From NCBI GenBank assembly GCA_004022145.1, contig RCNU01000014.1: DNA of 64,000 nt, one strand, 5' to 3'. Origin of the DNA: Paecilomyces variotii (lineage: Eukaryota). The position numbers and the translations under genes are program-made. Shown here piece after piece: positions 5,910 through 64,000 of the stretch (positions within the stretch are counted from its first letter, which is position 1; each line of letters begins with the position of its first letter). A model generated the notes under the pieces. It saw only the letters and a program-made list of their open reading frames with translations, was not told the DNA's origin and did not search any database.

Positions 5910-6208
5910 ATGGTGTTTTCCTATTTGCTTCGTCATACGAAGCATGGTTATTACTTGCGACGCCTATGAGAATAGTTCTATAACTCATTAATGTAAAAAA
6001 GTAAAAAAGCTGCTCAATGCAGTTACTCAATTGTCTCAAGCTCCCAGTAGGATGAGATTCAGCACGCGATAAATGCTTTCTCGTAAGATAATCTCGCCGC
6101 ATCCATCACGGCTCCCCATTGTTTCCCGCCTCTTATTCTCTCTTCAACTGGCTTAAAAATTTCACCAAGAAAGTGAGTCACGATATCATGTGACCCACAA
6201 CAACGAAT

Positions 6209-6280
6209 GGGCTTGTGGTTTAGTGGTATAATACCCCCTTAGCATGGGGGTGGTCCGGGGTTCGATTCCCCGCGAGTCCA
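6209..6280 (+). tRNA. tRNA-Ala (anticodon AGC)
   Basis: GGGCTTG/CGAGTCC acceptor stem with a G3:U70 pair, D-arm TGGTTTAGTGGTATAA, anticodon stem CCCCC-TTAGCAT-GGGGG, T-loop GTTCGATTC, followed by a T-run Pol III terminator. Confidence 0.95.
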
Positions 6281-6795
6281 TCTTTTTGCAACCCGTTGTG
6301 GCTCGTCGTTTTTCGAAACCCTTCTTTTTTTTGCCTTGCGGTATATATCAGTGGGCGTGCAGACCCAGACGCGGTGGGACGAAGCCAGGAAAGTGTCGCC
6401 GAGAAAGAATAAAATAATAGTTAAAACATGCGATAAGTGAGTAAAACAAGTCTTGTGATGACTCGGACTATAGAGCCTGAAAGAAAATAGAGTAATGAAA
6501 GCAAAGATTTCAGAGACGATGAAAGGACCCAAGAAGGGAGGCTTCCTCATCGATGGGAATGCATTTCCGATGTTCGATGCGGAACCTAACGATGCGAGAG
6601 ACGTCAACCCCAGCTGTCATGCATTAATGCGCATTCCTATTGTGCCTATTATGCCCGAGGGATTTCCATCCAGAATTCAGCTTAGGAGTCTCTCGTGGTC
6701 CAGACGGAGAACGATTATGACGCTCCCGCAAATGTGACGACTGGATGGGCCGCAGAACGAAAGTGTGATGGCATTATCGGAAAGTCGATGTACGT

Positions 6796-46071: not shown

Positions 46072-49000
46072 CAAATCGTTCCATTGGAGACGGGTCTGTC
46101 ATTTTTTGTTCCATTAATCTTCTATCATGTGTGTATAGTCTTCTCTTAATGTAATTTTGTTTAATACTACACCTATCTACTGTCGAATCCTGATGCACGA
46201 AAGCATGGCTCTTTATATGAATACCAAGAGATAAAGCTCGTATGAAAAGGGTTCATAAATGCTGTGCAAGTAGGGGGGAAGAGTGATATCAAGAAGTCTA
46301 GGTTCCTCTAATGCTAAAGATGTCGCTACATACATAAGGTCATGTGACCTATATTATATGCCTTTATACCAGATCTAGTATAGCAGGATCCCCCTCTAGA
46401 AAAGACCTATCCTAGGGCTTAGCAATAATATAAAAAATCTTAATATAAGAAAATACTAATATAAATACTAGAATATTAATATAAAAACTATTTCTCTTTA
46501 GTAAGTATTTAGCAAATCTCCTCTAAGACCTATATAATCCTATTATCTAAAATTATATTTATTATATCTATTAAATTAAGTATTTCTAAAAAAATTAATA
46601 TTAGTATATAGCGGGCTATATTATCTACTATTATTAATAATTAATATGCCTAATCTCTTAAATTATAAATATGCTGCTAATAATAGATCTCTATATCTTA
46701 TATTATATTTAGTATAGGGAAGTTATTATTTCCTATATTAATACTTTAATTAAATAATATAAGATAATATTATACTTAACTACCTCTTAGTAATATAGTC
46801 TTCTTAATAATTATTATAGGTTTTATAAGAAGCTTCTTTAAAATTCTTATATTTATTATACCCTATTTTATTCTTATATCTATAGATATTTATTATTATG
46901 TTATTATATTTATAGTTATTATATTATCTTTAGGTATATAGTTATTAATTATAATAGTTATATTATTGCTATCCTTATTATTATCTATCTCTATATTATT
47001 ATTTTATACCTAATATTATAATAGTAATATAATATACTTCTTAATTAGCATTTTATAATTAGCTAATATATCTTAGTTAATCCTAGGTCTAATATTATAG
47101 CAATTATATTATTTATTATCTTATTCTATTTAATACTATATAAAATTATCTAGTTAATATATATATTTATTACTTATCTTTAAGATAGATAGTAGTTTAT
47201 ATATTAAAGCTAATATCTTTTATTATACTTTATAGGGGACCTTATACTTATTAAATTAAAAGATTAATATTTCTTAGATTATATAAATACTCTTATCTAT
47301 TATCTATAGGCTATAATAATATAGAGAAAAGCTGTAAAATATATAATAATAATTATACTTAGGGTAATATACCTTATTACTATATTAAAGCTATATTATA
47401 GGACCTATTAATATATAAAAATAGTAGATATACTCTTAAGTATTAAAATCTGCTAATTATTTTACTGCCCTTTTTATTATAAAGACTATTTTAATAATTA
47501 TATAGACCTAGGCATTATATAGCTTTACATACTATAATAAATAGCTATATATATCTAGGTCCTAAACTATATTAACTAGGCTTTATATATTAAATATTAC
47601 TATATCTATATATCCTAGCTTTAGATATAATTTCTCTCTAGATTTATCTTTATTTTACTATATATTAGGAATAATAATACTTTTTATTATACTTAATATA
47701 TTAAGTTATTAAATAAATATATTATAATAACTAATACTAATAATATTAATAATTAATTATAAAACACAATATATTAAAGAGATAGAGTATAAGTTAAGGC
47801 ATAAGTTAAAGAAATAAAATTATAATATATAAAGAAGTATAATTATAATATAATATATAAGTTAAAAAAATAAGGCATAAGCTAAGAATATTAATATTTA
47901 AGATAAAATAACTAGTATTAATTATATAAGATTAGTAATATTTAGAGCTATACCTTAAAAGATAAAATTATTATAAAAATTAGTAAGGTATAAGTATAAT
48001 AGCTATTTTACTTAAATAATAGTTTAAATAAGTAAATCTATTAGTTCTTAAAGTAGTTTTATCTTACTTCTAAATATAATTTACTTAGTATTTATTTTAT
48101 ATTACCTATTAAAATCTCTATAATAGTTCTAAAATATTCTCCTTAAGATTAATAATAGGTTCCTATATCTTATTACTGTCTTTCTATTTTATTAAATACT
48201 AGTCCCTTATTTAGTAAAGAATATAATAAATTTTATATTCTTTATAATCTTATATTATAATTAAAGCTAATAACTATATTATCCTTTAATAAGTATTAGT
48301 ATAGGCTTACTCTAAATAGATAACTAATATTATAGGATAAATATCCTAGTCTTTTAGAAGATTTAACTTATAAGCTAATTGTTTAATATAGTATTTAATC
48401 TTAAATAAACCTTTTATTACTAGCGATAACTTTAATAATTATAATATTATATACCCTATCTTTTTAAGATATTTAGTTAAGTAAATATAAATATTATTAT
48501 ATAATAATAGCAGCTTATAGGCGGCATTAAATATTAAGGCTATTTTTACTTGCGCAAGATCTATAGTATTTAATATAGCAGTATAAATCTATTTCTATAT
48601 AGTAATAAAGTTATTATTAATATTAGTTAGACCTAATAAAATATAAGGATAAATACTATATAGGATCTTAAATAATAATATCTTAGTAAACTTATTAGAC
48701 AGCATATTATTAGCCTATTTAATATTAGGTAGTATTATAGCCTAAACTGCCTTATATTGCTTAATTAAAAGATAGTATAATATTATCTCTATTATAGCAT
48801 TAATTCTTTCTAATTAATTATTAATACTAGAATAATATACTGTAGTTATTTTAAGCTTTATATAATATATCTTAAATATCTCCTGCTAAAAGGCGCTTAT
48901 AAACTATATATCTTAATTAGAAATAATAGCTTTAAATAAATTCTAATCCTTAATAACTATAGCAAATAATACCTATATTTATTTTATTATACTCTATAAC

Positions 49001-52000
49001 TTATAACCTAAGATAAATTATATATACTATAAGAATTTATCTGTTATAATTAGGATAATATTATATCCTTAACTTTTAAGTAGTTCTATAATAAAATCTA
49101 TAGCCTAGATTTTAAGTAATACTAATAATATAAGAATAGGTTAATATAAACTATATTCCTTATATATATAGCGCTTTACTACTTAATATACTAGGTATAA
49201 TAAGATATAATCTACTAGCTCTATATATTCTTTAGGAAGGAAGAAGTTATCTTTTAATAAAGAATAACTCTATTTAAGGCCTAAATAGCCTAAGCTATTA
49301 TATATAATTTTAAATACTTCCTTATATAATATATAGGGAATATATAGATAATATAGTTCCTTTTATATATTATATAATATGCTATTCTTTATAGAAAATA
49401 AATAATATAAAGTATTATCTAATACTGCTAATTATTTATTAATCTTCTATATAATAGTATAAAATATAATATCTTTAATAATATTCTCCTTAATATATTC
49501 TATAAGGCTATTATCTAGCCCTAATAATATTATAATAAATATAACTATTTCTATAAATATATTTATTGCATCTATAAGAACTTAGTATAATATTTATTGC
49601 TTATCTTATATAGGATCCTTATAGCTAAAAATATAAAATAGCCTATTAATATTAGAGTAAACACACCCTTTATAATATTTAATAATTATATAAAAAAGAA
49701 ATCTAGCTAAATAAAGCGCTTAATTATTAAGTCTATAATTCTATTATATTAGATTCTATCTTTAAAGAGTATTTATTAATATAGTATAATCTATTACTAT
49801 TATAAATAGTCCTAAATTAAAATATTAAAATAGCTTAAATAATACTTAAACTAGTATATTATATTCTAATTCTATAGACTAATAATTTTATTTAGCTTTA
49901 ATAAGCTCCTTTAATAAAAACAAGACTAGATATTTAATATTATTATCTTCTATCTAGTATACTATAGCGCTATAGCCTTATTTCTTATTTTTATTAATAT
50001 AGAGTAGGAATAGTTTAATAAAATCTAGGTATATTAATATAGGAGCTAATATAATATAATTTTTTAAAAGCTATTATATATATTTAGCTTCCTTTATTAT
50101 ATCTAGTATTCTCTTAATTACTGCCTTAGCTATAAATTATTAATATATTTGCTTACTCTTTAGAGATCCTATAAAATCTCTTATTTTAAGTATATTAAAT
50201 AGCCTTATAATTATTAAAAAATATAGAATAAACTTTTAATAATAACTTATAAAGGCTAGCTTTATTTTAAATTACTGCAGTATTATAGGGAATATTATTT
50301 AATATATAGCTTATATCTTTTCTTTCTAAATAGTTATACTAAGATAAGATATATAATATTTTAACATTAATATTAAAGAGTATATAAAGTAATATTTTAC
50401 TATAGATAGAGAAATACTTAATCTCTTTAATATAGTAAATACCTTATTAAGATATTATAAGTACTATTCTTTTAACTAGCTATATATAATAATATTATTA
50501 ATATATACTAGAATAAAATCCTATAGATATTATAATAATAATCTTTCTATATAATATTAGAAAAAGCCTAGAGTTATTAATAGGCCTATTAATATTATTA
50601 TTAATTACTTAAGGCCCCTATAAGAGATAATAAATATTATTTTCTAATAATTAGATAGTTATACTAACTATTAAAAGAATTTCTTAATAATATTAAATAA
50701 TAAAAATATAGTAGCGCCCCTATATTTAGTAAGAATATTATCTTATTTTGGCAATAAATATATATTTAGAATAAGTTTTTTATTAATATATTATAGGTTA
50801 ATAACTATTTATAGCTTATTCTTATTTTATATAATAAATGCTAGTAATATAGCTAGCGCCTTCTATATTAAAGAGATATATTTTACCCGCTCTTTAATAA
50901 TTAATAAATTAAGAATAAAGTCTATAGCTTTATAATCTCTTAAGAAGAGATAAAATAGTGCTTATTTTACCCCTTTAATATTATTTTTATCGCAGAAATA
51001 TACTGGTATATTAACCTTATTATTAAATATACTAAGGCCTTTATAAAAAAGATTAGTATATTTATTTAAAATACTGCGCACCTATAATTTATATTCCTTG
51101 CCTTATATTAATAATATATCTGCTTATTCTACTATAGCACTAGTATTATTTATATTAGTTATCTTAATATTTACCGCTATTAGTATAAGATAATTAATAT
51201 TACTTATTAATTGCATTATACCTATTATTAAGATAAATACTTAAGATAAAGATATAGCTAAGGAGTTAACTAGTCCTTATCTATATAGGATAATCTCCTA
51301 TATTTATATATAATAATCTTATTTTATTATAATAGACTAAGGCTACTAATAAATTATTCTATATACTTAAATTATTATTTTTCTATAGAATAGGTATTAT
51401 TTAATATAAATATACCCCTAATATAAGATACTAATAGATATTAATTATATATCTCTAAGCAGGCTAAACTATAACTATTTTTATTATATAAATTATTTAT
51501 TTCTTCTATAATAGTTATTTATAAGATCTATTTTATAAAGACTTTACTAGTATTTAATATCTGCTAATAATAGCCTGCTATCTAGGTAAGTTAAAGATTA
51601 TTTTATTTTTAATAAAGATACTAGTATCTACTATTATATTATAGGCTAAGATAAGAATAATATAATAATATTTAGTAAATAAAGTTATCTTACTATTATT
51701 AGTAAGCAATATAATTATAATATTAAGTTAATAAGTAGAATTTATCTCTTAGTTACTAATTTTTTTTAAAACCTTTATATATGCTGCTAAAATAATATCT
51801 AAAAAATATTTATTATAATAAGCTTATAAAATATATAAAATATTTAACCCTATATTTAAGCATATAGTTAAGTTCTCTCTATTATAGATAAAATCTGCTT
51901 ATAAATATTTATACTGCTCTTAGGCCTATATAAGGGCTAAAGGCTATCTTTCTATAAATTATAATACCTCCTTATCTCTAATTTTTTTTAGTTTTCCTTA

Positions 52001-52224
52001 TTAATAAGAATAGCTTTAAAAGCCTTTAAGATTTCTAGATTCTTAGTATTTATATTATTATCTAATATTATAGCTATATAAATATAAGCGTCTTTTTATA
52101 TAAGATAGTTATTATCCTAATACTAAGCTCTATAATAATAATATAGATATAATAATAATTATTTTTTATAGGGTTATTATAGTGAATATAATAATTAAAT
52201 ATTTTTACCCTTATCTTTAAATAC

Positions 52225-52552
52225 TGTTGTAGGAAGACATGTTAAGACTCAGCATAGAGTCTTTGAGCAAGTAGGTATTGAGAAGGAAAAGAAGGGGATT
52301 CGGCTTCGGAGCTCAGAGTAGAGCTAAAAGAGAAGCTCTGGCTGTGGACTAACATAATAAACCAATAATAATCTAATGCTGAACTAATACTGAACAATAA
52401 TAGAAAGGAAAAGCTGATTATTTTATTTTAAATAATTAAAAGATATTATCTCCCTCTTCTCTTGCTTTACTTATAGACCTTTTAAAGACTTTAAGTAAAA
52501 GCATATAATCTTTTAATTAATTATATTCTTTATACCGATCCTCCCTATTATA
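52225..52552 (-). repeat. 3' LTR of the nested Gypsy element
   Basis: 328 bp, colinear with 62137-62464; differences are overwhelmingly C/T and G/A transitions. Confidence 0.93.
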
Positions 52553-52554
52553 TA

Positions 52555-52568
52555 GCCTCCCCTCCTCT
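52555..52568 (-). other. Polypurine tract of the nested element
   Basis: Minus strand AGAGGAGGGGAGGC lies just 5' of the 3' LTR. Confidence 0.85.
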
Positions 52569-52649
52569 GAGAGCAGATGCCCCTGTCTGTCTTCTTTAGT
52601 TATCACAGTCTACCCTATCTCCTCTTTTTAATACTATGAATTGTTCCTA

Positions 52650-55440
52650 AAGCAGGAATGCTCCAGTTTCCGGTATTATATATATCTTAAAACCCCTAAC
52701 TTATAAAGCTGAGTTCCTTTCCTCCGCAGATAATCTCAAACTAATAATATATCTTATTTTAGTATAAAATATAGCTTTACTTTAACTTCTAAGCAATCCC
52801 AGTTTAGCTGACTAAATATCGCTCTATCTATAACTATAACTCTATTCACCTAGATATTAAAAGGCCCAGATCCTCCTTAATTAGATCTTATCTTATCTTG
52901 CTCCCTATAATTAAAACAGCAGATATTATTAAGATCTGTTTCTTAATTCTCTAATACTAGCTGACGCAAATTGCTGATAAAGGTTACTTCTCCCTGCCTA
53001 AGTGCAATGTCTTTTGGGCCCATAGTTTCCTCAGACTTATCTCTGGCAATTAGTCCAGTCCCTAGGGTTGTAAAGCTCCAGCCTATTCCTCCCTTGGGGA
53101 TGGCAGTCTCTGTATTTAATGCTCTTGGCTTATATCCCCTAAGATACCAGACCTGCAGCCTATATTTGCTGTAACTATGTAGCGCTAACCAGATTAAATA
53201 GATCTAGATATCTTGTATAATAATCTTTTAGAGAATACTTTTAGATAAGTTCTTAAGCCCTATTAATCCTTCACCCTCCTTCTTATAATAAAGGGCTGCT
53301 TTCGCTTCTGTAGTGGTATATTATAGCATCCCTTTAGCTAGTTTCCCTTCAAAGGGCATGATCTGGAAAACCCTATTCGCTTCCTAACGGTTAAAGTCCT
53401 CCCTTATTGCGATACCTAACTGGATATATTAGTCCCGTATCTTATTCAGGGTGAAGTCTTCTTTGCTTAGGTCGAAATATTTTCCGTCCCTATATTTGGA
53501 TTTGGGATACTCTTTAGCCCTATATAGGTTGTCTCGGGCTTCACAATATAAGCTGCTAGGTATATTACTGGAAGTATCTGTATCAATCAACCCAAGATCT
53601 CTGAATGGTCAAACTATCCCTAATGCTGGGGATTTCTTGGGGAGAAGGTTTTCGGATAAGGATTCTTTAATTTTTATATTATCTCTATCTTCTATACTTT
53701 CAGGACTTCTTAGAATGGGACTCTTTATTCTTTCTTTAATCTGGCTGTTGCTGGGTATGCCTGGCATCTGCTCGGCCTCTATATCATTTTTGAACTGTAT
53801 AGTTCTGGCGTTCTACATATCTTTCAGGTGCCTGGTTTCTTTCTTAATAAAAGGATCTTTCAGGTTTACCGCAGAAAAGGAGGTCTTCATATTAATTTCT
53901 AAAACTCTGCTAAGAGGTTCTATTGCTTATTCATTTTTAGAGGTTTTACTTATAGACCGTTCAGTTTCTTCAAGCGAACTTCTATAAGAATAGGTTATTA
54001 TTCTGAATAGTCCCTTCTTTTACTGCTTTACTACCGCCAGCTTTATATTTCTGACTGCTTTTAATACTCCTCTAGCTTCTTTCCTAGACATGTCCTCCCT
54101 TATACTAATTATATTGGCCAATAATTATATATGAGGCTTGCAGATTAAGTCAATCTTCCTAGAATTAACCCATTATAAAACTTCTCCGACCTCCTCAGCG
54201 CTTATATTCAGTCTACTTAGCCAGGACTATACTTTAGTTTCCCCCTTATCCAGGCAGCAATAATCCTTAAGGTTAGTGTTAAGTCTCTATCCCTATTAAA
54301 ACTATTTCCAGTAGTCCGCACTAGTATTCCAGGATTTGAGATTATTGTCACCATCTATAAGTGTTTTCAACCTTTTTCTAAGGATATTATCTTTTGTACT
54401 CTTTAATCCCATTGCGCTTTGCACTTCTTTAATATAAACTTAGCATATAGCGGCGGGTTTAATCCTTTCTTCCCTTAAAAGTTCTAGTATTTCTTTACCT
54501 TCTAGATTAATAATGGCCTTTTCTATTAATATAGATATGCCAATCTTATATTTATATCCTTTTTCTGGCCGTTTCCCCTTATCTTAAGTCTTAAGCTTTT
54601 TTTCCCCTTTTGGCTTCTTAGGACTTTTAATCCTTTTTTTCCCTTTTTCCTTCTCCTCTATGCTTTCCTCTCCTTTATTTAATATTAAATCTATTAATAA
54701 GCTCTTATCTAAATCTTCTATCTAATATTCTTCTTTTTCTCCTATAATCTCCTCTAGAAGATTATTCTCCCCTACTCTTATTTCAACCTCTTACAGCTCT
54801 TTATTAGTAGGCTTTTAAGGAATTGGTCCTTCTCCGCTGAGGGCTTTTTTTAAAATATCTTTTGCCTTTCTAATATTAGTTAGTTAAAGGCTCTTTTTAG
54901 TTAGTATTCCTTATCTCCCAATATTATAAAGTCTGTTAACCTGTGCTCTTGCCAGATATACAGCTACTATTCTCCAGTCTCTAATACTAGAAGCTAATCC
55001 TCCTATAGCTATTAAGGTCTGGTATAACTTTCTAATAATTGATAAGACTTGGTCTATAGTCTCCTAGCTCTATTTCTCTATGGCTTTGCAATAACCTTTA
55101 TTAGCATATTTATAGTTCTTTTCTGCTCATATTTTTAATTCTTTTAGCTCGTCAACAGCCAGTACTTCTTTTTTTCTTGCTTTTTCTAATAGCTCCTATT
55201 AATTCAGAAAATCATAAAAATTACTGGCTGCTTTATTATATCTGCTTTAAAAATTTAAAATAATTACTGCTATATTGCTTATAAACTAAATCTTCTCTTC
55301 TTTATTATTGGCCTTATTTATTATCTCCTTTATAAGCTTACAAATTTCGCTAATTGTAATATATATATATATTCTAAGTTAAAGAGCTTTGTCCTGACAA
55401 ACAACATTTTGTATTTCTAATATGTTTTTTTTTATTTTTA
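52650..55440 (-). pseudogene. Extra ORF (ORF3) of the nested retrotransposon, ~930 codons, RIP-stopped, unknown function
   Basis: Hand translation stays in one minus-strand frame across ~2.8 kb, with long stop-free stretches and only TAA/TAG/TGA interruptions compatible with C>T or G>A change. The ends are approximate. Confidence 0.7.
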
Positions 55441-55734
55441 ATGTGTATCTTCGCAGAGCGACTTTTTAAAATGGTTTTTAAGTGAAAAGATATATTTAAA
55501 AGGTAAGATAGGGTTAAGTTTAGCTTAATTTGGTCTCCAGTCACTTCCGCTATAGTATTATATAATATAAAAAATAAGGTTTTTATAATAAGGTGAGGAT
55601 TCTTTATTTATTGCTTATATTCTTTATCTAATATTTTCTATTTTTAGCTTTGTTTATAGACTTTTTTAAGATATTTAAGCCAATATCACATATTTTTCAG
55701 TTATCTCTCTTTTTCTTCTTTCTTAATTATTATT

Positions 55735-58700
55735 AGGCATCTTTGAATCCTTCCCCTCCCCTAAAAAAGACGCCCTTATCTTAAGTTCACCCTCCTTCTC
55801 TTCCTATTATAGCACTAATATTTATTTTACTATTATTCTTCTATTTCTTCTCCTTTTAAACTGGCTCCTTATCTTACTTTACTGCCAGCTTTCTACTTCC
55901 CTCCTTTTAAGCTAATATTTTTAGAAGGAGGATATTAGAACTATAACTATATATTCCGATCCAGGTAATATCTAGTCCACATTATTATTATTATTACTCA
56001 GTTGCTGATTTTCTTGCTCAGGTACTATATTATTACTTATAGTTAGTATTTTATTTTAATCCTCTTATAGATAGTAGCCTTTTAAGTAATTCCTATAAAT
56101 CGGGTCCTTAAAAGATATGCTATCTAACTCCTTAAGCTTATAAGATCCTTTCCTAAGGACTTCTTTAATCCTATATGGTCTGAGCCAGCAGTATACCAGT
56201 TTTGCAGAGTAAGATATCTTGAGCTTTATATTATAAAGCAGAATAAGCTATCCTTCTATTAGTTATTCTTCGCAAAGCTGTTTCTTATTGTCAAAAACTT
56301 CCTTGCCAGCTTCTCTTATGCATTAAACGCGAAGTCGGGCCTCTTCTATATCCTAATCTCGGAGCTCTATCTATTATACGCGAAGGAGTAGAAGATCTTC
56401 TATAATCCTAACCTTATCCCATGCTAAAATCTTTTAGATGGACACTTCTAGTTTGATTGGCAGTACAGCATTATATCTTATAATTGCTCTGAATAGTGTT
56501 AAGCCTATAGAAGTCTTAACTATATTCTTATCTGCCCAGATTACTGCCGATAGATAGTTTATCTAATTTATTCTTATTCCTTTTGCAAGTTTTCTGATAC
56601 TACGTATAAAGGACTTATATATGACTTTAACTGCTTTGTTTGCTTACAAGTTATATAGCGAGACTTTAATATAGTTAATCTTATATTTCTGTACTAATAT
56701 GTTAACTACAGCTTTATTCTCCAGTCCTTTATTATTAATAAGTGTCTCTATTACTCCCTAATAATAAATCTAGTCTTTCTACAAGAATTTAGCAATAGCT
56801 CCTAAAGTAGGGCTATTAAAGGCTTTATATTTGACCTAGCCGAAATTATCCCAAAATACAGCAATATAAGTCTTTCTCTTGCTAGGCGGCATAATCTTGC
56901 AGATATCTAGATATAGCTTTAATCTCCCTGATAGAATAAATATCGACCATAAAGCTTTTTCCATGCGTTCTTTATCTGCTTTCTAGCATTTATTATATAT
57001 CTTCACCTATCTAGCAACATATTTGTACAGGCCTTTCCATTAATATCAATTAGCTATCTTTTGGTAGGTCGCTTCATATTTATAATATTCATACTCTTCA
57101 TAAAGGGCTGTAAGAATTTCTTTTTATTTTTCCTTGTTGTTAACAACTATATGGCAAGGCTGATTTTGTTATACTCTCCAAAAAAGCATATTATCTTAGA
57201 CTATATACTTTAGGGCCTCTTTCTTAAACTTGGCGTACTGTCCTCTGTCTATATTGTCCGGTTTTATTATAGTTTATAACTATTCTATGATTAGTAAAGA
57301 CTTTTCTGACCAATATAATATAGGTATTAACCAAGGGATGCTGTCTAATTCCACCTCTTACACGCTAGTATAATAGACTATATAAAACTATAGGTCTAGG
57401 AATTCCTCTATATCATTATCTTCCGCCTCTTCTAGGTCTTGCTTTATTGCCAGCTTCCAAGATAACCCGTCTATGACTAAGTTCTTTTTCCCCAATATAT
57501 AGATAATATTAAAGTTAAACAGCTGAATCTAAGCAATCCACTAAGCAACTATTGACCTAAGGAGGTCTATAGCTGTCCTATTTAATTGCGCCACTAGAGT
57601 TTTTATATTTACCTCTAGTTGAAAGTGTATACTATATAGGTATGCTCAGAATTTGTGAAGCGCCTTTAGCACTGCCCTATACTTTAGCTTTCTTTTATTA
57701 TATTGCCTCTCTATCTATGTCTATACTCTACTTTTATATCTAGCTGGGTGTCTCTTATTGGACTCCTTTTCTTTTTAAGTAAGTTAAGCCTCCTATCTAT
57801 TGTTACTAGCATTAGTATTAATAATAATTATACCTCCCTCTCTATAATTAATTGGTTTAAGTGCTGGTACTGTTGTCAGGGCCACTTTTAAGGTATCTAT
57901 TACTTCTTATTATTCCAGCCCCTAAAAGAAGTCTTATCCCTTTCTCAATATTAAATATATCGGCTTAGCTTTAATAACATATCCTTTAATCTATATCTAG
58001 TAATAGGCTGTAACCCCCAGAAATCCTTTCGCTTCCCGTAAATTCTAACAAAGTAGTCACTCTAAGATCTTAATTACCTTAGCCGACTTAGGATATCTTC
58101 CTTTAGTGTTACACACATAGCCTATCACTTTAATTCCTGATACTGCGAATTATAATTTCTCCCCAATAATTATCAAACCTATAAGTTTAAGACTGCATAG
58201 TATTTTATCGATATTCTAGATATATTTAAATATAAACCTTCTGATTCCCAGCAGCGTCTCTTCCCCCCTATAATTAGTCTTAGGTCCTTATATTGGCGTA
58301 TTATCCAGAAATATATCACAAATATCAGGAATATTATCTGCCAGTACTCTTATAACTCCTTATATAAACTCCTATACTGCATTTGTCCATCCTTAGGGTA
58401 GTCTGGCTTAATAAACTAAACTGATCCCTAGTATATAGAAAGCTGTTAAGTCCCGCAATTCCTCAGCTAATTCTAACTGATTATACCTAAAGAACAAGTC
58501 TATAAGTATTAATACTAGTATTCTACTAAACTCTTCTAAGAACTCATTAGCTAAAGGGGGCAGATTAATGTCCTATATTATTATTTAATTAACTTCTATA
58601 GCCGTATTAATCAGGCGATATTTGCTATTTTTCTTTTTTATTAGGAACTATAGATTTTGGTAGGGTCCTTAACTGCGTTTAAGGATCCCCACATTTATCC

Positions 58701-59400
58701 TTTTTTTTATTATCCCTTATATTATGCTATAGAGTGCCTTCAGTACTAAGAAGCTCTTCGCCTATTATAGTTTGTAATCTATAGTCCGAATAATAATTAG
58801 AGGTGCGACTTCCGGGCACATTTATCCAATCTCTTTAAAGGTCTAGGCAAGGACTGCTTCTTAGGTGAAAAGCACCTCTGTTAACAGTTCTTTCTCTCTT
58901 GGCCATAAATCATTACCTATAATAAGGTTCTTCAGATAGTCTGGCGTCAATCTTATTCCTTTTTTAATATCCAATATCTTTAGCTAGATGTATTTGGTAA
59001 ATCCTCCGCGTATTTTTTTTATACTTCCTTAGGGATTTTTATAATAACGCTCCCTAATAATTTTTTTCTATCCCAATAATCCCCCTAGAGCTGTTATAGG
59101 TCCGTTTAATATATTTGCTGGACGAACCTTTTTATATTTCTTCTTATATTGTATATTAACAGAATATTTTATTTTTATAGTAAAAAAGTCATATCTTCTG
59201 AATAGTCTATACCCTTATAACCTTCTAACTCCTTTGTTTAATTCGGTAGGTTTAAATATCCCTACCCCTTTACTTTTAATTTCTTTGCTCGCTCTGAAGC
59301 TGATATTATTTACTAAATATAGCTCCTACAGGCCTTTTCTATTCCTAGTCCAGTGCCTGTTATTCCTTTCTGGCTTTAGTTTAATAACTCTTATGCCTGG
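55735..59400 (-). pseudogene. pol (RT-RNase H-integrase) of the nested element
   Basis: RT: LIDLFFRYNQLEL.EELRDLTAF...RLP*GWTNAV and IFLDNTPI*GPKTNY..E..LGIRRF (FLDD site ~58300-58311). RNase H: NASNN and RHPARYKS. Integrase: LYLDI, NKGLENKA and WLRPYRI. No chromodomain seen. Confidence 0.88.
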
Positions 59401-62050
59401 GATAATAGATTATATAATACCTCTTCTCTTAACTTATTTCTTGGGTTATCTATTGAAAATATCCAAATAATAGCTCAATTCTTTCGGTCTATAGAGTAAA
59501 TTATGCTCTCCACTATCCTATCTAATAGAGCAACATGCTGTAAATATATTTAATGCTTAAAAGGCTGTCCCAGAACATAATTATGGTTAATCTTATTATT
59601 TACTATAAAGAAAGGGACCTTGTAATAAAAAGATTCTATCTGTATAGGCACCTCCTCACAGAGACCTATAAAAGGGGTCTGCCTGCTATCTGCCAATATT
59701 ATATTACCTCCAAATTTCTAGCTTATGATAAGTTTATAGTGATTTGCTATATCTCTATATATTATATTAATTTCGGCTCCACTATCTACTATGATATTTT
59801 GCGCTTCCTTATAACCATTAATTCTAATTGGCAACTTCAGAGTTGCGGCCACATATAGCACCTTATCTTTATTAAAAGGCTTAAGTTATAAGGACGCGCA
59901 AGTGTACTGATCCGCACTATTCACTATATACTCTATATTTAATACAGAGGCATCAAACCATACTCCTTTAGTATTGTGGAATATTGCCTTTATTATTACC
60001 TACTGCGGTTGCGAGGTAAATAAGGCCTTGTATAAATTAGGAGATAGACTGATGAGGTCCCAAATTAACATCTGAACTCTAGTATCTAATATCTGGTTTA
60101 TAACCCCTATTATATTAGTAGTCCCTTTCAGCTTATCTGTAACTTTGAATCTTTTTAACTTCTGTTTCTCTTTTATCTTAATAGCCTTTTTATCCTTACT
60201 CTGCTTAGGCATATTCTTTATTTTTTTTTTAACTATCCTTATTTTCTCAGTTATGCTCGGAGGCTGATAATTACCAAATCGGTTTATCTTAACTGAAAGA
60301 AATCTTTATTCCTATTTAATTACTTTCTGTAGTTTTTCTTTATATAATTATTCAGTCCTGCTTTGCCTTTTCTTCACTTTTTAGGGCTTATCTAATCTTA
60401 TTATATTAATAAAGTAGTAATTTTCTACAATATCCCCGGCTTCTTCCTCAGAGCTCAAGTTATCCTTAGGCTGTCTCAGCATAATCGACTGGATATTATA
60501 CCCGATTGAGCTAATATTCCTTTACTCTTCCTTCAGTCTCTATTTAATAATCTCCTTTTACAATATATTCCCCTATATAAGATAAATAACTTCTCTATTC
60601 TGTCCTTCCGGCCTGAAATAAAGTTTATAATCTTTTCTCTAATGGACAAGCTTCTGATTTAGGAGGCTTTTCAAATCTGGGCAGTAAAATTAAATATAAT
60701 TAGGAGCCCAGCAGAAGTTATATAAGTTTAGAGGTATTCTAGATCCTCCAGTTAGGTTAAATCCTAAAGATGCCCTAGCTTATATATTTATATCAGCGTT
60801 AGACATACTATTATTAAGCCTCCCCATATACTGTATATTATACAGTTTTAACTTCTCAAACTCTTTTATTAACTGATCGATCTATAACTGCTCTATTGAC
60901 TTCACTTTAATGTTCTATTATTTGGTCCCACTCTTATTCTTATCTAGGTAGGTTTTATTAGGTTTAATAAGAAATTATGTGTTATCTTTTTTAGTTACCT
61001 TCTCCTTTGTTAAAGCCGCTATATCTTAATCTTTCTCTAGTTCGCCGCTGTCGAGGTAGCGAAGGGTTTTAGTTATTCTTACCCTATCTACTACCTCCTT
61101 ATAGAAATTAGTATATTTAATAGTAGATAAAATATAGTAGTCTATATTCAACTCTTAAACCACTTGCTGCTTAAGCTCCTCTAGAAGTCCTTAAAGATAT
61201 TAAACTCCCTATAAATATCGGCTTAACTTATCTGAAGTTACCAGCGCTTCTAATATAGCTTAATATTCTTAGTTATACTCCCTTAGGTCCTCAGAGCTAT
61301 TATAGTTCATATTTTTAAACCTTTCTAGCTATTAGATATTGTATTTCCTTTAATACTTATCATAATAAGCGTACTCTTATTTGGTCGCCTCTGCCAGTTT
61401 TGGGTAGTTCTTCTCTTTATATTTAGATTAAGTACTTATCTATAATAATATTAATAGGCTATAATAGTCCGCAAACTATTTAGTTTTTTCTTTTTCCGGG
61501 AGTTGATTCGCCTTATATAGCCTCTTAAAAAGCCTTAGGTAATAAGTAATATTATCCCTTTTAAAATATAGTGCCCTAAGATTTCCAGGCATCAGCATCT
61601 GCAGAGCTAATATAATTTAGATTAGCTGCGCTATTGATAGTCCTATATTTTTAGATACTCAAGCTGTCTATGTCTCTAGACCCGGCGATACTAAGGAGCT
61701 AAAAGTCCTTTTATCTTAACTAACGCTAAAAAGATTAGTGCTTTTCTCTATATTTTTTTAAAGGAATAGTAACAAAGATAATAGTAAGAAATTCTTCCAC
61801 TTTTTAATAAATAGTTCTTATTTAATAATTTCTTATTCCTTTTAAATTTCTACTTCCCTTTTATATTTGCTAAGCTCTTCCTTATATTTGGCAATCCTTT
61901 CTTTCTTTTATTGTTAATATATGTTTTCATCCTATATTATATTTGCTGTCTCTACTGATCTAAGAGGTATATTTATCTCTTTTTATTTATAGTGGTAATC
62001 TTCCTTAGCTGTTTTACTTATCTTTTTACTGCTTCTTACCCCTTTTCTTG
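59376..62050 (-). pseudogene. gag-protease of the nested element
   Basis: RIP-altered zinc knuckle YNFCWAPNYI*FYC (~60680-60725), DUF4100-like ILDTRVQMLIWDLISLSPNL (~60030-60090) and protease VDSGAEIN (~59770-59790); the last two are in the same frame. Start is approximate. Confidence 0.8.
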
Positions 62051-62136
62051 GCTTTGGCCTCGACCTCAGCTTCTAGTTTTCCTTTCTCCCTTATTTCTGC
62101 TTAATATTTTAACACCCCCCGTGTTTAGCTCTAATT

Positions 62137-62464
62137 TATTATGGAAAGATATATTAAGACTTAGCATAGAGTTTTTAAGCGAGTAGATATTAAGAAGAAA
62201 AAGAAGGGGATTTAGCTTCGGAGCTTAGAGTAGAGCTAGAGGAGAAGCTCTAGCTATAGACTGATATAATAAACCAATAATAATCTAATACTGAACTGAT
62301 ACTAAACAATAATAGAAAGGAAAAGCTGATTATTTTATTCTGAATAACTAAAAAGTATTATCTCCCTCTTCTCCTGCTTTGCTTGTAGACCTTTTAAAGA
62401 CTTCAAGCAAAAGCATATAACCTCTTGACTAATTACATTCTTCACACCGATCCTCCCTACTACA
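62137..62464 (-). repeat. 5' LTR of the nested Gypsy element
   Basis: 328 bp, matches 52225-52552, followed on the + strand by TSD ATAC. Confidence 0.93.
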
Positions 62465-64000
62465 ATACTACTAGCAGTATTGCCCTGCTAATAGCTATAA
62501 CTAGCTCTTATATCTATATTAGTACTTGCGCCTTTTAATAGTACTAAAAGAGCCTATCTATATATTCTTATATAAACAGTATTAATAATAGCCTGCTATA
62601 TATATACTAAGATTCCTTTTATTCTTAATATATACCTGTCTTAATATATTATATCTAATAATAAAATTACTCTATAGGCTTACTTAGCTTAATATAAATT
62701 AGTATTACTAGCTTTAAATCTAACTCTTCTTATAACTTATTTTTAATAGCCTTATTATTTATTATACTTACTTTTCTTAATAGTATAATCTTTTATATAA
62801 GATAATTATTTAATAGAAGTTTATTTACTATAGTAAATAAAAAGATTAAGTTTTATATTTATTAATAAGCCTTAACTAAATTATAATAAAACTCCTCTTC
62901 TAATAATTAATACTATTTATCTAAAGAATAAGCTAATTTATTATATATCTCCTTAAGTAGGTTTATATATTATACTAATACTCTGCCCTTTAAGTAAAAG
63001 GGTAAAATATTTAATACTATATATACTCCTTTATAAAAAGCTATAATCTTAATTCTCCTAGTAAAAAATTAAATATTTTTATCTATTAGGTTAAAAATTA
63101 TAATATCTTTTAGTTTTAACTATTATTAATATTATTTATCTCTATACTAGGATTTAGTATTATAAGGCTTTTTTTTTATATATTAGTCTCTATAATCTAC
63201 TGCTTTATATATATTATTTATATAATAAGCAATTATATAATTAGCATTGGCCTAATCTAAAGCTTAGTTAATATTAGCTTAATCTAAAGCTTAATTAGTA
63301 TTAGCCTAATTTAAAGCTTTTAGCTAATTATTCTTATATTAATTATCTTAATTCTAATTTTTTAACTATTATATTTAACTACTTCTTTAACTCCTTAATA
63401 TAATTTTCTAAATAATATTCTTATTCTAAAAAATATTCTAAGAAATATTATTAATAATTTAATTGCCCTATTATTAATAATAATAATATTTACTCTATAA
63501 ACTAAGTATAGCAATCTAGTCCTATATAGAATGCCTGCGCTTATTTAAGTAGGGATACTATTAGGATATTATAACCTATGCCTTACTATATTTAGTATTT
63601 CTATACCTCTATATAGAGGTCTTTTACCTTCTTTAATAGCATTATAACTAAGACACTATTTACTTATATTAGATTAGTTTATATTAGGTAATTATTAACT
63701 AATTTATAAAGATTATCTGTTAATTTATTATAATATATAAATAGCCTATTAATTAATACTGTATAAAATTTAAACTGCTTTATAATATATTATATAGGTG
63801 CCTTTTTATTCTTTCTTAACTTATCTATATTTATATTTTCCTCTTATATTAATTTTTATTAGTTGCTATATAAATTTAATATTATATTAGATATTATATT
63901 AGCAATACTTACAGCAGACATATATAATCCTATTCTTTAATCCCTATAGAAAAGGACATATTATCTAAATATTATATATAGAATTAGGATTATATATAAG

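Follow-up and report, generated by a model that had tools for sequence, protein, structure and literature searches.

A RIP-damaged third open reading frame between pol and the 3' long terminal repeat of a Ty3/Gypsy-type retrotransposon in Paecilomyces variotii

Can a fungal Ty3/Gypsy-type retrotransposon carry a third gene, and if so, what kind of protein would it encode? The question is raised by a stretch of 64,000 nucleotides of contig RCNU01000014.1 from Paecilomyces variotii (GenBank assembly GCA_004022145.1), here called the window, in which a 10,240-bp long terminal repeat (LTR) retrotransposon of the Ty3/Gypsy type occupies the minus strand from position 62464 to 52225. Between the predicted end of its pol gene (ca. 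55735) and its polypurine tract (52556-52568), there are ca. 3.17 kb, in which the original prediction, made from the letters of the DNA, had placed a large accessory open reading frame (ORF3) that might encode a 2-oxoglutarate (2OG)-Fe(II)/PhyH-like protein. We find that ORF3 is very probably a genuine element-borne gene and that it belongs to an orphan protein family, of which only short pieces, from fungal data, have been seen to date. In this copy, gag, pol, and ORF3 alike were inactivated by repeat-induced point mutation (RIP), and the copy is a pseudogene. The explanation that best covers all the observations, and which we hold to be reasonably probable as a whole, is that of a third gene from an orphan family, in sense orientation between integrase and polypurine tract, whose product has a nuclear role at nucleic acid or chromatin.

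The ORF3 frame extends over 52634..55435 on the minus strand (ca. 933 codons plus the first downstream TAG, at 52634-52636). Measured over 52640-55435, it contained 37 internal stops in 932 codons, versus 97 and 107 for the two remaining sense frames. In 1,000 mononucleotide shuffles, the lowest of the three frame counts had a mean of 71.5 and did not fall under 50 in any shuffle. The large stop-poor sense frame that had been proposed between pol and the polypurine tract is thus real. Its predicted span (52650-55440) was accurate to within a few bases, and all the peptides quoted from it (DYCCLD, LICKPH, EAKAALYYKKEGEGLIGLKNLSKSIL*KIIIQDI*IYLIWLALHSYSKYRLQVWY, GIGWSFTT, and PKDIALRQGEVTFISNL) were found in one minus-strand frame. 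The frame of pol that encodes reverse transcriptase (RT) and integrase (IN) had 66 stops in 1,133 codons, indicating that ORF3 is damaged to a degree similar to that of the known genes of the element. At the start of ORF3, the codon 55435-55433 is ATA and aligns with Met1 of a homologous protein (P0003, described below), that is, a change from ATG to ATA. One antisense frame was also poor in stops (39), and its longest open reading frame, of 184 amino acids (53433-53987, plus strand), lies inside ORF3; none of the 19 homologous fragments presented below matched on the plus strand, and this antisense frame is taken as a shadow of the ORF3 coding frame.

Relatives of ORF3 were collected with phmmer, run exhaustively against 1.84 billion protein representatives at an expectation value (E) of ≤1e-3. 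The search provided 19 homologous fragments (labelled P0001 and so on), nine of them at E ≤1e-10 and four at E ≤1e-30, that were 42 to 340 amino acids long and 32 to 72% identical to ORF3. When compared with the window by tblastn, each fragment gave a single match, always on the minus strand and in the same frame (55435-52649), and jointly they tile ORF3 residues 2 to 928. Fragment P0003 (239 amino acids) aligned without gaps to the N terminus, with 164 of 239 positions identical. In order to recognize the footprint of RIP, a mismatch was counted if a C>T or G>A change can produce the window codon from some codon of the homologue residue. By this measure, all 75 mismatches with P0003 were explainable, against 0 in the reverse-direction control. 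Along similar lines, the stops of ORF3 were always opposite Arg, Gln, or Trp (13 of 13 versus P0003 and 7 of 7 versus P0002), with no gaps or frameshifts. The remark in the original prediction that the frame contained only RIP-type stops is uninformative by itself, given that any stop is derivable by C>T or G>A; it gains its value from the Arg, Gln, and Trp residues that relatives have at these positions. Together, the exclusively RIP-type mismatches and stops relative to P0003 and the single frame shared by all homologues indicate that ORF3 was a real gene, inactivated here by RIP. P0003 itself thus amounts to an un-mutated N terminus from the same element family.

In the cases of P0004, P0009, and P0012, reverse-direction changes outnumbered forward ones (for P0009, 2 forward versus 17 reverse), which means that their source copies are more mutated than the copy in the window. 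For P0005, P0007, P0008, P0010, P0011, and P0013, less than half of the mismatches were RIP-explainable (34 of 81 for P0005), and long motifs were retained. Since these divergent relatives keep long motifs and are not RIP variants of the window copy, the protein must have been conserved in lineages that had diverged. The ORF3 family therefore occurs in repeated, RIP-targeted DNA. A hint that a relative lies beside retroelement sequence in another genome was provided by P0016 (221 amino acids), in which an ORF3-like N terminus is joined to an RT fragment with YVDD (RVT_1, E of 2.8e-4); this fragment is either a gene model that fuses nested repeats into a chimera or an element that was rearranged in another genome. 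A near-length profile search returned only three fragments, all already known, and one homologue had a name, hypothetical protein of Paecilomyces variotii.

These data bear directly on the possibility that ORF3 derives from a cellular gene that this single element family took up in recent times and that plays no part in the life cycle of the element. The absence of a known function, the absence of the family from Pfam, and a GC content slightly above that of pol (0.36 to 0.40 versus 0.30 to 0.35, per 500 nt) would all fit such an origin. However, there was no full-length cellular homologue among the 1.84 billion representatives, where every match had 340 amino acids or fewer, nor in length-restricted searches. 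The lack of ORF3 proteins of more than 340 amino acids is expected of a transposon gene masked or split by annotation, unlike a cellular gene. Besides, the relatives are all short fragments, several of them more RIP mutated than the window copy, which is the pattern of repeats and not of host genes; those at 32 to 48% identity imply long persistence, and ORF3 is packed tightly against the polypurine tract. We consider recent capture unlikely.

The gag, pol, and ORF3 genes form one Ty3/Gypsy-type insertion. A 300-nt direct repeat with a spacing of 9,912 bp was refined to two LTRs of 328 bp, the 5' LTR at 62137..62464 (minus strand, starting with TGTAG) and the 3' LTR at 52225..52552 (minus strand, ending with ACAACA). 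The minus-strand flank just upstream of the former is AGTAT (62469-62465), and the latter is followed by GTAT (52224-52221), which gives a target site duplication on both flanks of either 4 bp (GTAT) or 5 bp (AGTAT). The two LTRs align gaplessly over 328 columns. In the local alignment, which has 355 columns (the last ca. 27 past the LTR ends), 46 of the 51 mismatches were transitions, in both directions, a pattern to be expected of LTRs on which RIP acted separately. The polypurine tract, AGAGGAGGGGAGG (52556..52568, minus strand), follows the ORF3 stop at a distance of 65 nt and is separated from the downstream 3' LTR by 3 nt. No tRNA-complementary primer-binding site was identified after 62137 in this RIP-damaged sequence.

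Upstream of ORF3, the gag-protease frame (59559..62130, minus strand) includes a weak match to DUF4100 (ca. 60024-60221; E of 9.9e-4) and an aspartyl protease (PR) with a DSG motif (ca. 59559-59831; gag-asp_proteas, E of 4.7e-3; Asp_protease_2, E of 8.4e-3). All these Pfam scores were below the curated cutoffs, as expected for RIP-damaged sequence. No papers joining DUF4100 with retrotransposons were found by full-text search. The RT-RNase H-IN frame (55750..58899, minus strand) matched three Pfam families (RT_RNaseH_2, E of 1.1e-10; RT_RNaseH, E of 3.4e-9; Integrase_H2C2, E of 4.4e-4). Its RT/RNase H region (ca. 57457-58725, with the RNase H Pfam match at 57619-57906) matched the PDB sequences of Ty3 Gag-Pol (7q5b; E of 5.7e-24) and Ty3 RT/RNase H (4ol8; E of 1.6e-23), and the integrase zinc domain is located at 56977-57138. 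The domain order on the minus strand is hence PR-RT-RNase H-IN, with the protease at 59.8 to 59.6 kb, RT/RNase H at 58.7 to 57.5 kb, and the IN zinc domain at 57.1 to 57.0 kb. The gag-protease and RT-RNase H-IN segments occupy different frames, which implies either frameshifting between PR and RT in the expression of this family or an indel in this copy. No chromodomain was detected in three frames over pol (E ≤0.05) or in 55640-56130 (E ≤10), where RIP could erase a domain of 50 residues.

ORF3 could also have been a C-terminal extension of the Pol polyprotein, split in this copy only by RIP stops or an indel. The original stops are hidden by RIP, and the 3' end of pol can be placed only roughly, at 55.75 to 56.0 kb, both of which leave room for this reading. 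However, the ORF3 frame differs from the RT-IN frame, and the spacer between them (55436..55749, minus strand; ca. 300 to 450 nt) is stop dense in all frames of a three-frame translation, with ca. 10% stop codons in the pol frame versus 4 to 6% in coding frames. Furthermore, the un-mutated P0003 begins with Met exactly at the start of the conserved sequence, and no fused form appeared in the search for longer proteins, although the latter is weak evidence. An extension of Pol seems to us improbable, to about the same degree as recent capture. Two repeats were observed around this junction. A 21-nt unit present in 1.9 copies (55407-55446) straddles the ORF3 start codon, and a 60-nt direct repeat (55273-55332 and 55609-55668; 70% identity, 336-nt spacing) joins the first ORF3 codons to the spacer. 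Both may be what is left of a regulatory or duplicated segment, or they may have arisen by chance where the DNA is so rich in AT.

A third alternative is that an independent mobile element happened to insert in sense orientation between pol and the 3' LTR and makes up the 2.8-kb segment. Insertions of one element into another are frequent in AT-rich blocks affected by RIP, and a second Gypsy element, degraded to a remnant, lies beside the present one. Nevertheless, a target duplication or terminal repeats of its own were looked for around the segment and none, direct or inverted, bracket it; the only repeats seen were short AT-rich matches of ≤30 nt and the internal 60-nt pair. Pfam revealed no signature of a transposase, RT, or integrase that would belong to the segment itself, and the reading frame runs through nearly all of the gap, ending 65 nt short of the polypurine tract. 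A nested insertion is thus very unlikely, and the proposal of an element-borne accessory gene in sense orientation was borne out by its single frame, its proximity to the polypurine tract, and the lack of terminal repeats of its own.

Turning to the protein that ORF3 would encode, the order of its parts could be derived from alignments with the homologues. The charged N-terminal region (residues 1 to 239; 54719..55435, minus strand) is the part covered by the gapless alignment to P0003. After an acidic run, there is a basic patch, GKKRIKSPKKP (residues 265 to 275; 54611..54643, minus strand), which is conserved and nearly identical in P0014 and in P0007 (KKRTKSPKKP), even though the latter has only 37% identity to the query over the matched stretch. 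We take this patch to be a candidate nuclear-localization or SPKK-type DNA-contact motif. Two Cys/His patches come next (residues ca. 294 to 334 and 392 to 435; 54131..54556, minus strand), as seen in the alignments to P0007, P0010, and P0011. Each consists of CxC, 35 to 40 residues, and then CxxH, and several of these Cys and His residues are Tyr in the window copy, as RIP would produce. The SWIM zinc finger has the signature CxCxnCxH, versus the CxC...CxxH spacing of the Cys/His patches, and neither the window ORF3 nor any of 14 homologue fragments gave a Pfam match to a zinc finger.

The second half of the protein comprises a Ser/Pro-rich linker (residues ca. 480 to 610; 53606..53998, minus strand), defined by composition in 60-residue blocks and covered by P0002 and P0004, and a C-terminal domain of ca. 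320 residues (52646..53602, minus strand; alignments A1 and A4). Within the latter, two cores stand out on the minus strand, the first at 53159-53308 (EAKAA...LSRSILQK..QDI..YLIWLAL..G.GEHR in homologues) and the second at 52796-52891 (IR.DQGG.G.FD..V.GVTAIGKA.LGQA.WD), with terminal helices after it. The last ca. 50 residues of ORF3 were modelled as helices with predicted local distance difference test (pLDDT) values of 71 to 91. Alignment A1 has 75 conserved C-terminal columns, a column being considered conserved when it was the same in at least 75% of at least three non-window rows.

The C-terminal domain has no recognizable catalytic signature. No Pfam family matched the window ORF3 at E ≤0.1, and none of the matches of the 14 homologue fragments at E ≤1 was above a curated cutoff. 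Several candidates were discarded. Sub-threshold Pfam matches (PhageMin_Tail, WSD, MgtE_N, and others; E of 0.01 to 0.5) were rejected as noise, and so were the PDB sequence matches obtained with A1, P0003, P0007, and A3 (best E of 0.11). In the ESM Atlas, P0005 and P0003 scored at best 0.75, with a plant DnaJ-like cluster; neither search provided anything usable, and both results were rejected. The possibility that ORF3 is a duplicate of gag was dropped with a best BLASTP E of 13 against the gag of the element.

The original prediction had compared the C-terminal domain with the double-stranded beta-helix of 2OG-Fe(II)/PhyH-like oxygenases, which would make ORF3 an enzyme modifying nucleic acid or chromatin. 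There is a conceptual precedent, since an extra ORF with an AlkB-type 2OG-dependent dioxygenase (2-ODD) domain and N6-methyladenosine demethylase activity is described for an orchid Gypsy lineage (PMC9289625), and some beta strands appear, in models of low confidence, in the latter half of the C-terminal domain. The idea was reasonable given this orchid gene, yet it is not supported for ORF3. No oxygenase or PhyH family was among the Pfam results at the thresholds given above, a PDB sequence search with the C-terminal profile came back empty at E ≤10, and the Atlas provided no lead. The motif on which the comparison was built (G.L.N..S..Q...QD...Y...AL) was modelled, with low confidence, as helices. 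Only one His column is conserved in A1 (5 of 5 non-window rows, in a G-E-H-R context), with no HxD/E...H triad; the prediction had itself conceded that it saw no clear HxD metal triad, and in this it was right. We regard an oxygenase as scarcely credible.

An env-like membrane glycoprotein is the least probable reading of all and has practically no chance of being correct: it has in its favor only the position 3' of pol, while the N terminus of P0003 is polar and not signal peptide-like, no convincing hydrophobic stretch of ≥19 residues exists in the homologue fragments, and no Pfam env or fusion-protein match was found. In the Kyte-Doolittle scan of P0001 to P0020, the most hydrophobic 19-residue stretches averaged ≤1.3, except for one of 1.82 that contains Asp and Lys. 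The earlier judgment that ORF3 lacks a signal peptide or transmembrane anchor and is probably not env agrees with these results.

If ORF3 is an element-borne gene, as we believe, its product may act as a nuclear adaptor, a mechanism that we put forward tentatively. The protein would enter the nucleus and bind nucleic acid or chromatin on behalf of the element, the conserved basic patch acting as a nuclear-localization or DNA-contact motif and the Cys/His patches binding metal. There, it might aid the expression or export of element RNA, as a regulator or export adaptor, similarly to the regulators and adaptors whose genes follow pol in complex retroviruses and in some plant Gypsy lineages. Alternatively, it could serve as a tether for integration in a lineage without a detectable chromodomain. 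A stop-dense spacer separates ORF3 from the upstream pol, and we presume on this account that its expression required a spliced or subgenomic mRNA or an internal promoter. It is conceivable, if still doubtful, that ORF3 founds an undescribed accessory family of filamentous ascomycetes, nuclear in location, whose members take over the tethering of integration from the chromodomain or else shield or boost element RNA in the face of host silencing.

Several observations weigh against the overall picture. The nuclear adaptor draws on the meanings usually given to motifs (candidate nuclear-localization or SPKK sequences and Cys/His patches) and would stand or fall with them. An enzymatic fold would also be compatible with the AlphaFold2 models, given their low mean pLDDT values (47.8 for the C-terminal 323 residues with an 11-row alignment and 34.3 for P0008 with a 7-row alignment). 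When the two Cys/His patches were considered as an internal duplication, hhalign did align the expected segments, with an E of 0.55 and a probability of 0.1, which is not significant. With regard to the association with the element, the window holds only one copy of ORF3, according to the tblastn comparison, and outside the window only P0016, which may be a chimeric model, links ORF3 to LTR elements. Finally, a word-indexed search with the whole ORF3 found nothing among 8,000 scored candidates of 540 to 1,721 amino acids, and a profile search for longer forms gave 0 of 7,262 candidates of 596 to 2,000 amino acids, both of which are weak evidence of absence.

The surroundings of the element are those of a repeat block next to ordinary genes. 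Positions 1 to 46,000 of the window have ca. 50% GC and contain ordinary fungal genes, among them those for a Zn2Cys6 transcription factor, Mediator Med17, a neuropathy target esterase homologue, an anoctamin, and a GRIP coiled-coil protein. Beyond 46 kb, and as far as the window extends, the GC content drops to 16 to 40%, and this block has the look of RIP-mutated repeats in a filamentous ascomycete. Active RIP and retrotransposon-derived AT-rich blocks have been reported for P. variotii (PMC6300479). Directly downstream of the element is the second Gypsy-type remnant (47500-51500, minus strand), far more heavily RIP mutated, within a block of 16 to 19% GC (46100-52200); it showed weak matches to RT_RNaseH_2 (E of 7.5e-4) and RT_RNaseH (E of 1.7e-3) as well as integrase-like strings by eye. 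None of the 19 ORF3 homologues mapped to this remnant by tblastn on the window. Upstream of the 5' LTR, the DNA at 62465-64000 is extremely AT rich (GC of ca. 0.18 to 0.19) and had no Pfam matches in the three minus-strand frames, which suggests that the element was inserted into, or mutated together with, an older repeat block extending past the window. A single tRNA-Ala(AGC) gene (6208-6282, plus strand) was found 46 kb away from the element, and there is thus no sign of Ty3-style insertion beside a polymerase III gene.

Given that fungal Gypsy elements are normally described as consisting of gag and pol only, a conserved extra protein of 930 residues would be a new element-encoded function, and one that might bear on integration targeting or on the evasion of genome defence in fungi that use RIP. 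For annotation, the consequence is that fragments of ORF3 deposited as hypothetical proteins, such as the P. variotii entry, should be counted as transposon derived. Since the copy in the window is dead, its value is that of a pointer to the family and not of an active gene.

How does this element compare with known systems? Fungal Gypsy elements are split into chromoviruses and Ylt1-like elements, the latter occurring in ascomycetes that include Coccidioides, according to PMC2864245 and PMC3248453. The present element resembles fungal Ty3/Gypsy elements (Metaviridae) in having LTRs with a target duplication, gag-PR followed by RT-RNase H-IN, a polypurine tract, and an RT/RNase H similar to that of Ty3, and it differs from them in its 10.2 kb and its third ORF of ca. 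933 codons; the accessible text of PMC2864245 and PMC3248453 makes no mention of an ORF3. Full-text searches, whose scope excludes subscription journals and Repbase, likewise gave no published account of a fungal Gypsy element with a large ORF3 on the sense strand. The statement in the original prediction that standard fungal Gypsy elements encode only gag and pol holds as a general description but has at least one published exception, the antisense gene brtn of Botrytis cinerea Boty/BcGypsy1, which is like ORF3 in being an additional gene of a fungal Gypsy element (PMC8365987). ORF3 is set apart from brtn, by description, in being on the sense strand and much larger. The title of the paper by Zhao et al. 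from 2011, cited in PMC8365987, reportedly describes brtn as antisense.

Extra ORFs 3' of pol are found as well in the Tat/Ogre Gypsy lineages of plants and as the accessory genes of complex retroviruses. Bdelloid rotifer LTR elements "capture additional ORFs," in the words of PMC5408684. ORF3 shares with the extra 3' ORFs of plant, bdelloid, and retroviral elements its position between pol and the 3' LTR, a lineage-specific sequence, and the need for separate expression; it differs in having no detected sequence similarity to them and in its host, a filamentous ascomycete. The orchid AlkB-type gene is likewise an additional ORF in a Gypsy element but with clear 2-ODD homology and demethylase activity (PMC9289625), while ORF3 has neither a 2OG match nor a metal triad. 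Extra ORFs in LTR retroelements are already known as a kind, and Pfam, PDB sequences, and the Atlas offered no match to the family of ORF3. If the nuclear accessory role considered above is real, elements that carry ORF3 would be "complex" LTR retrotransposons, analogous to the complex retroviruses.

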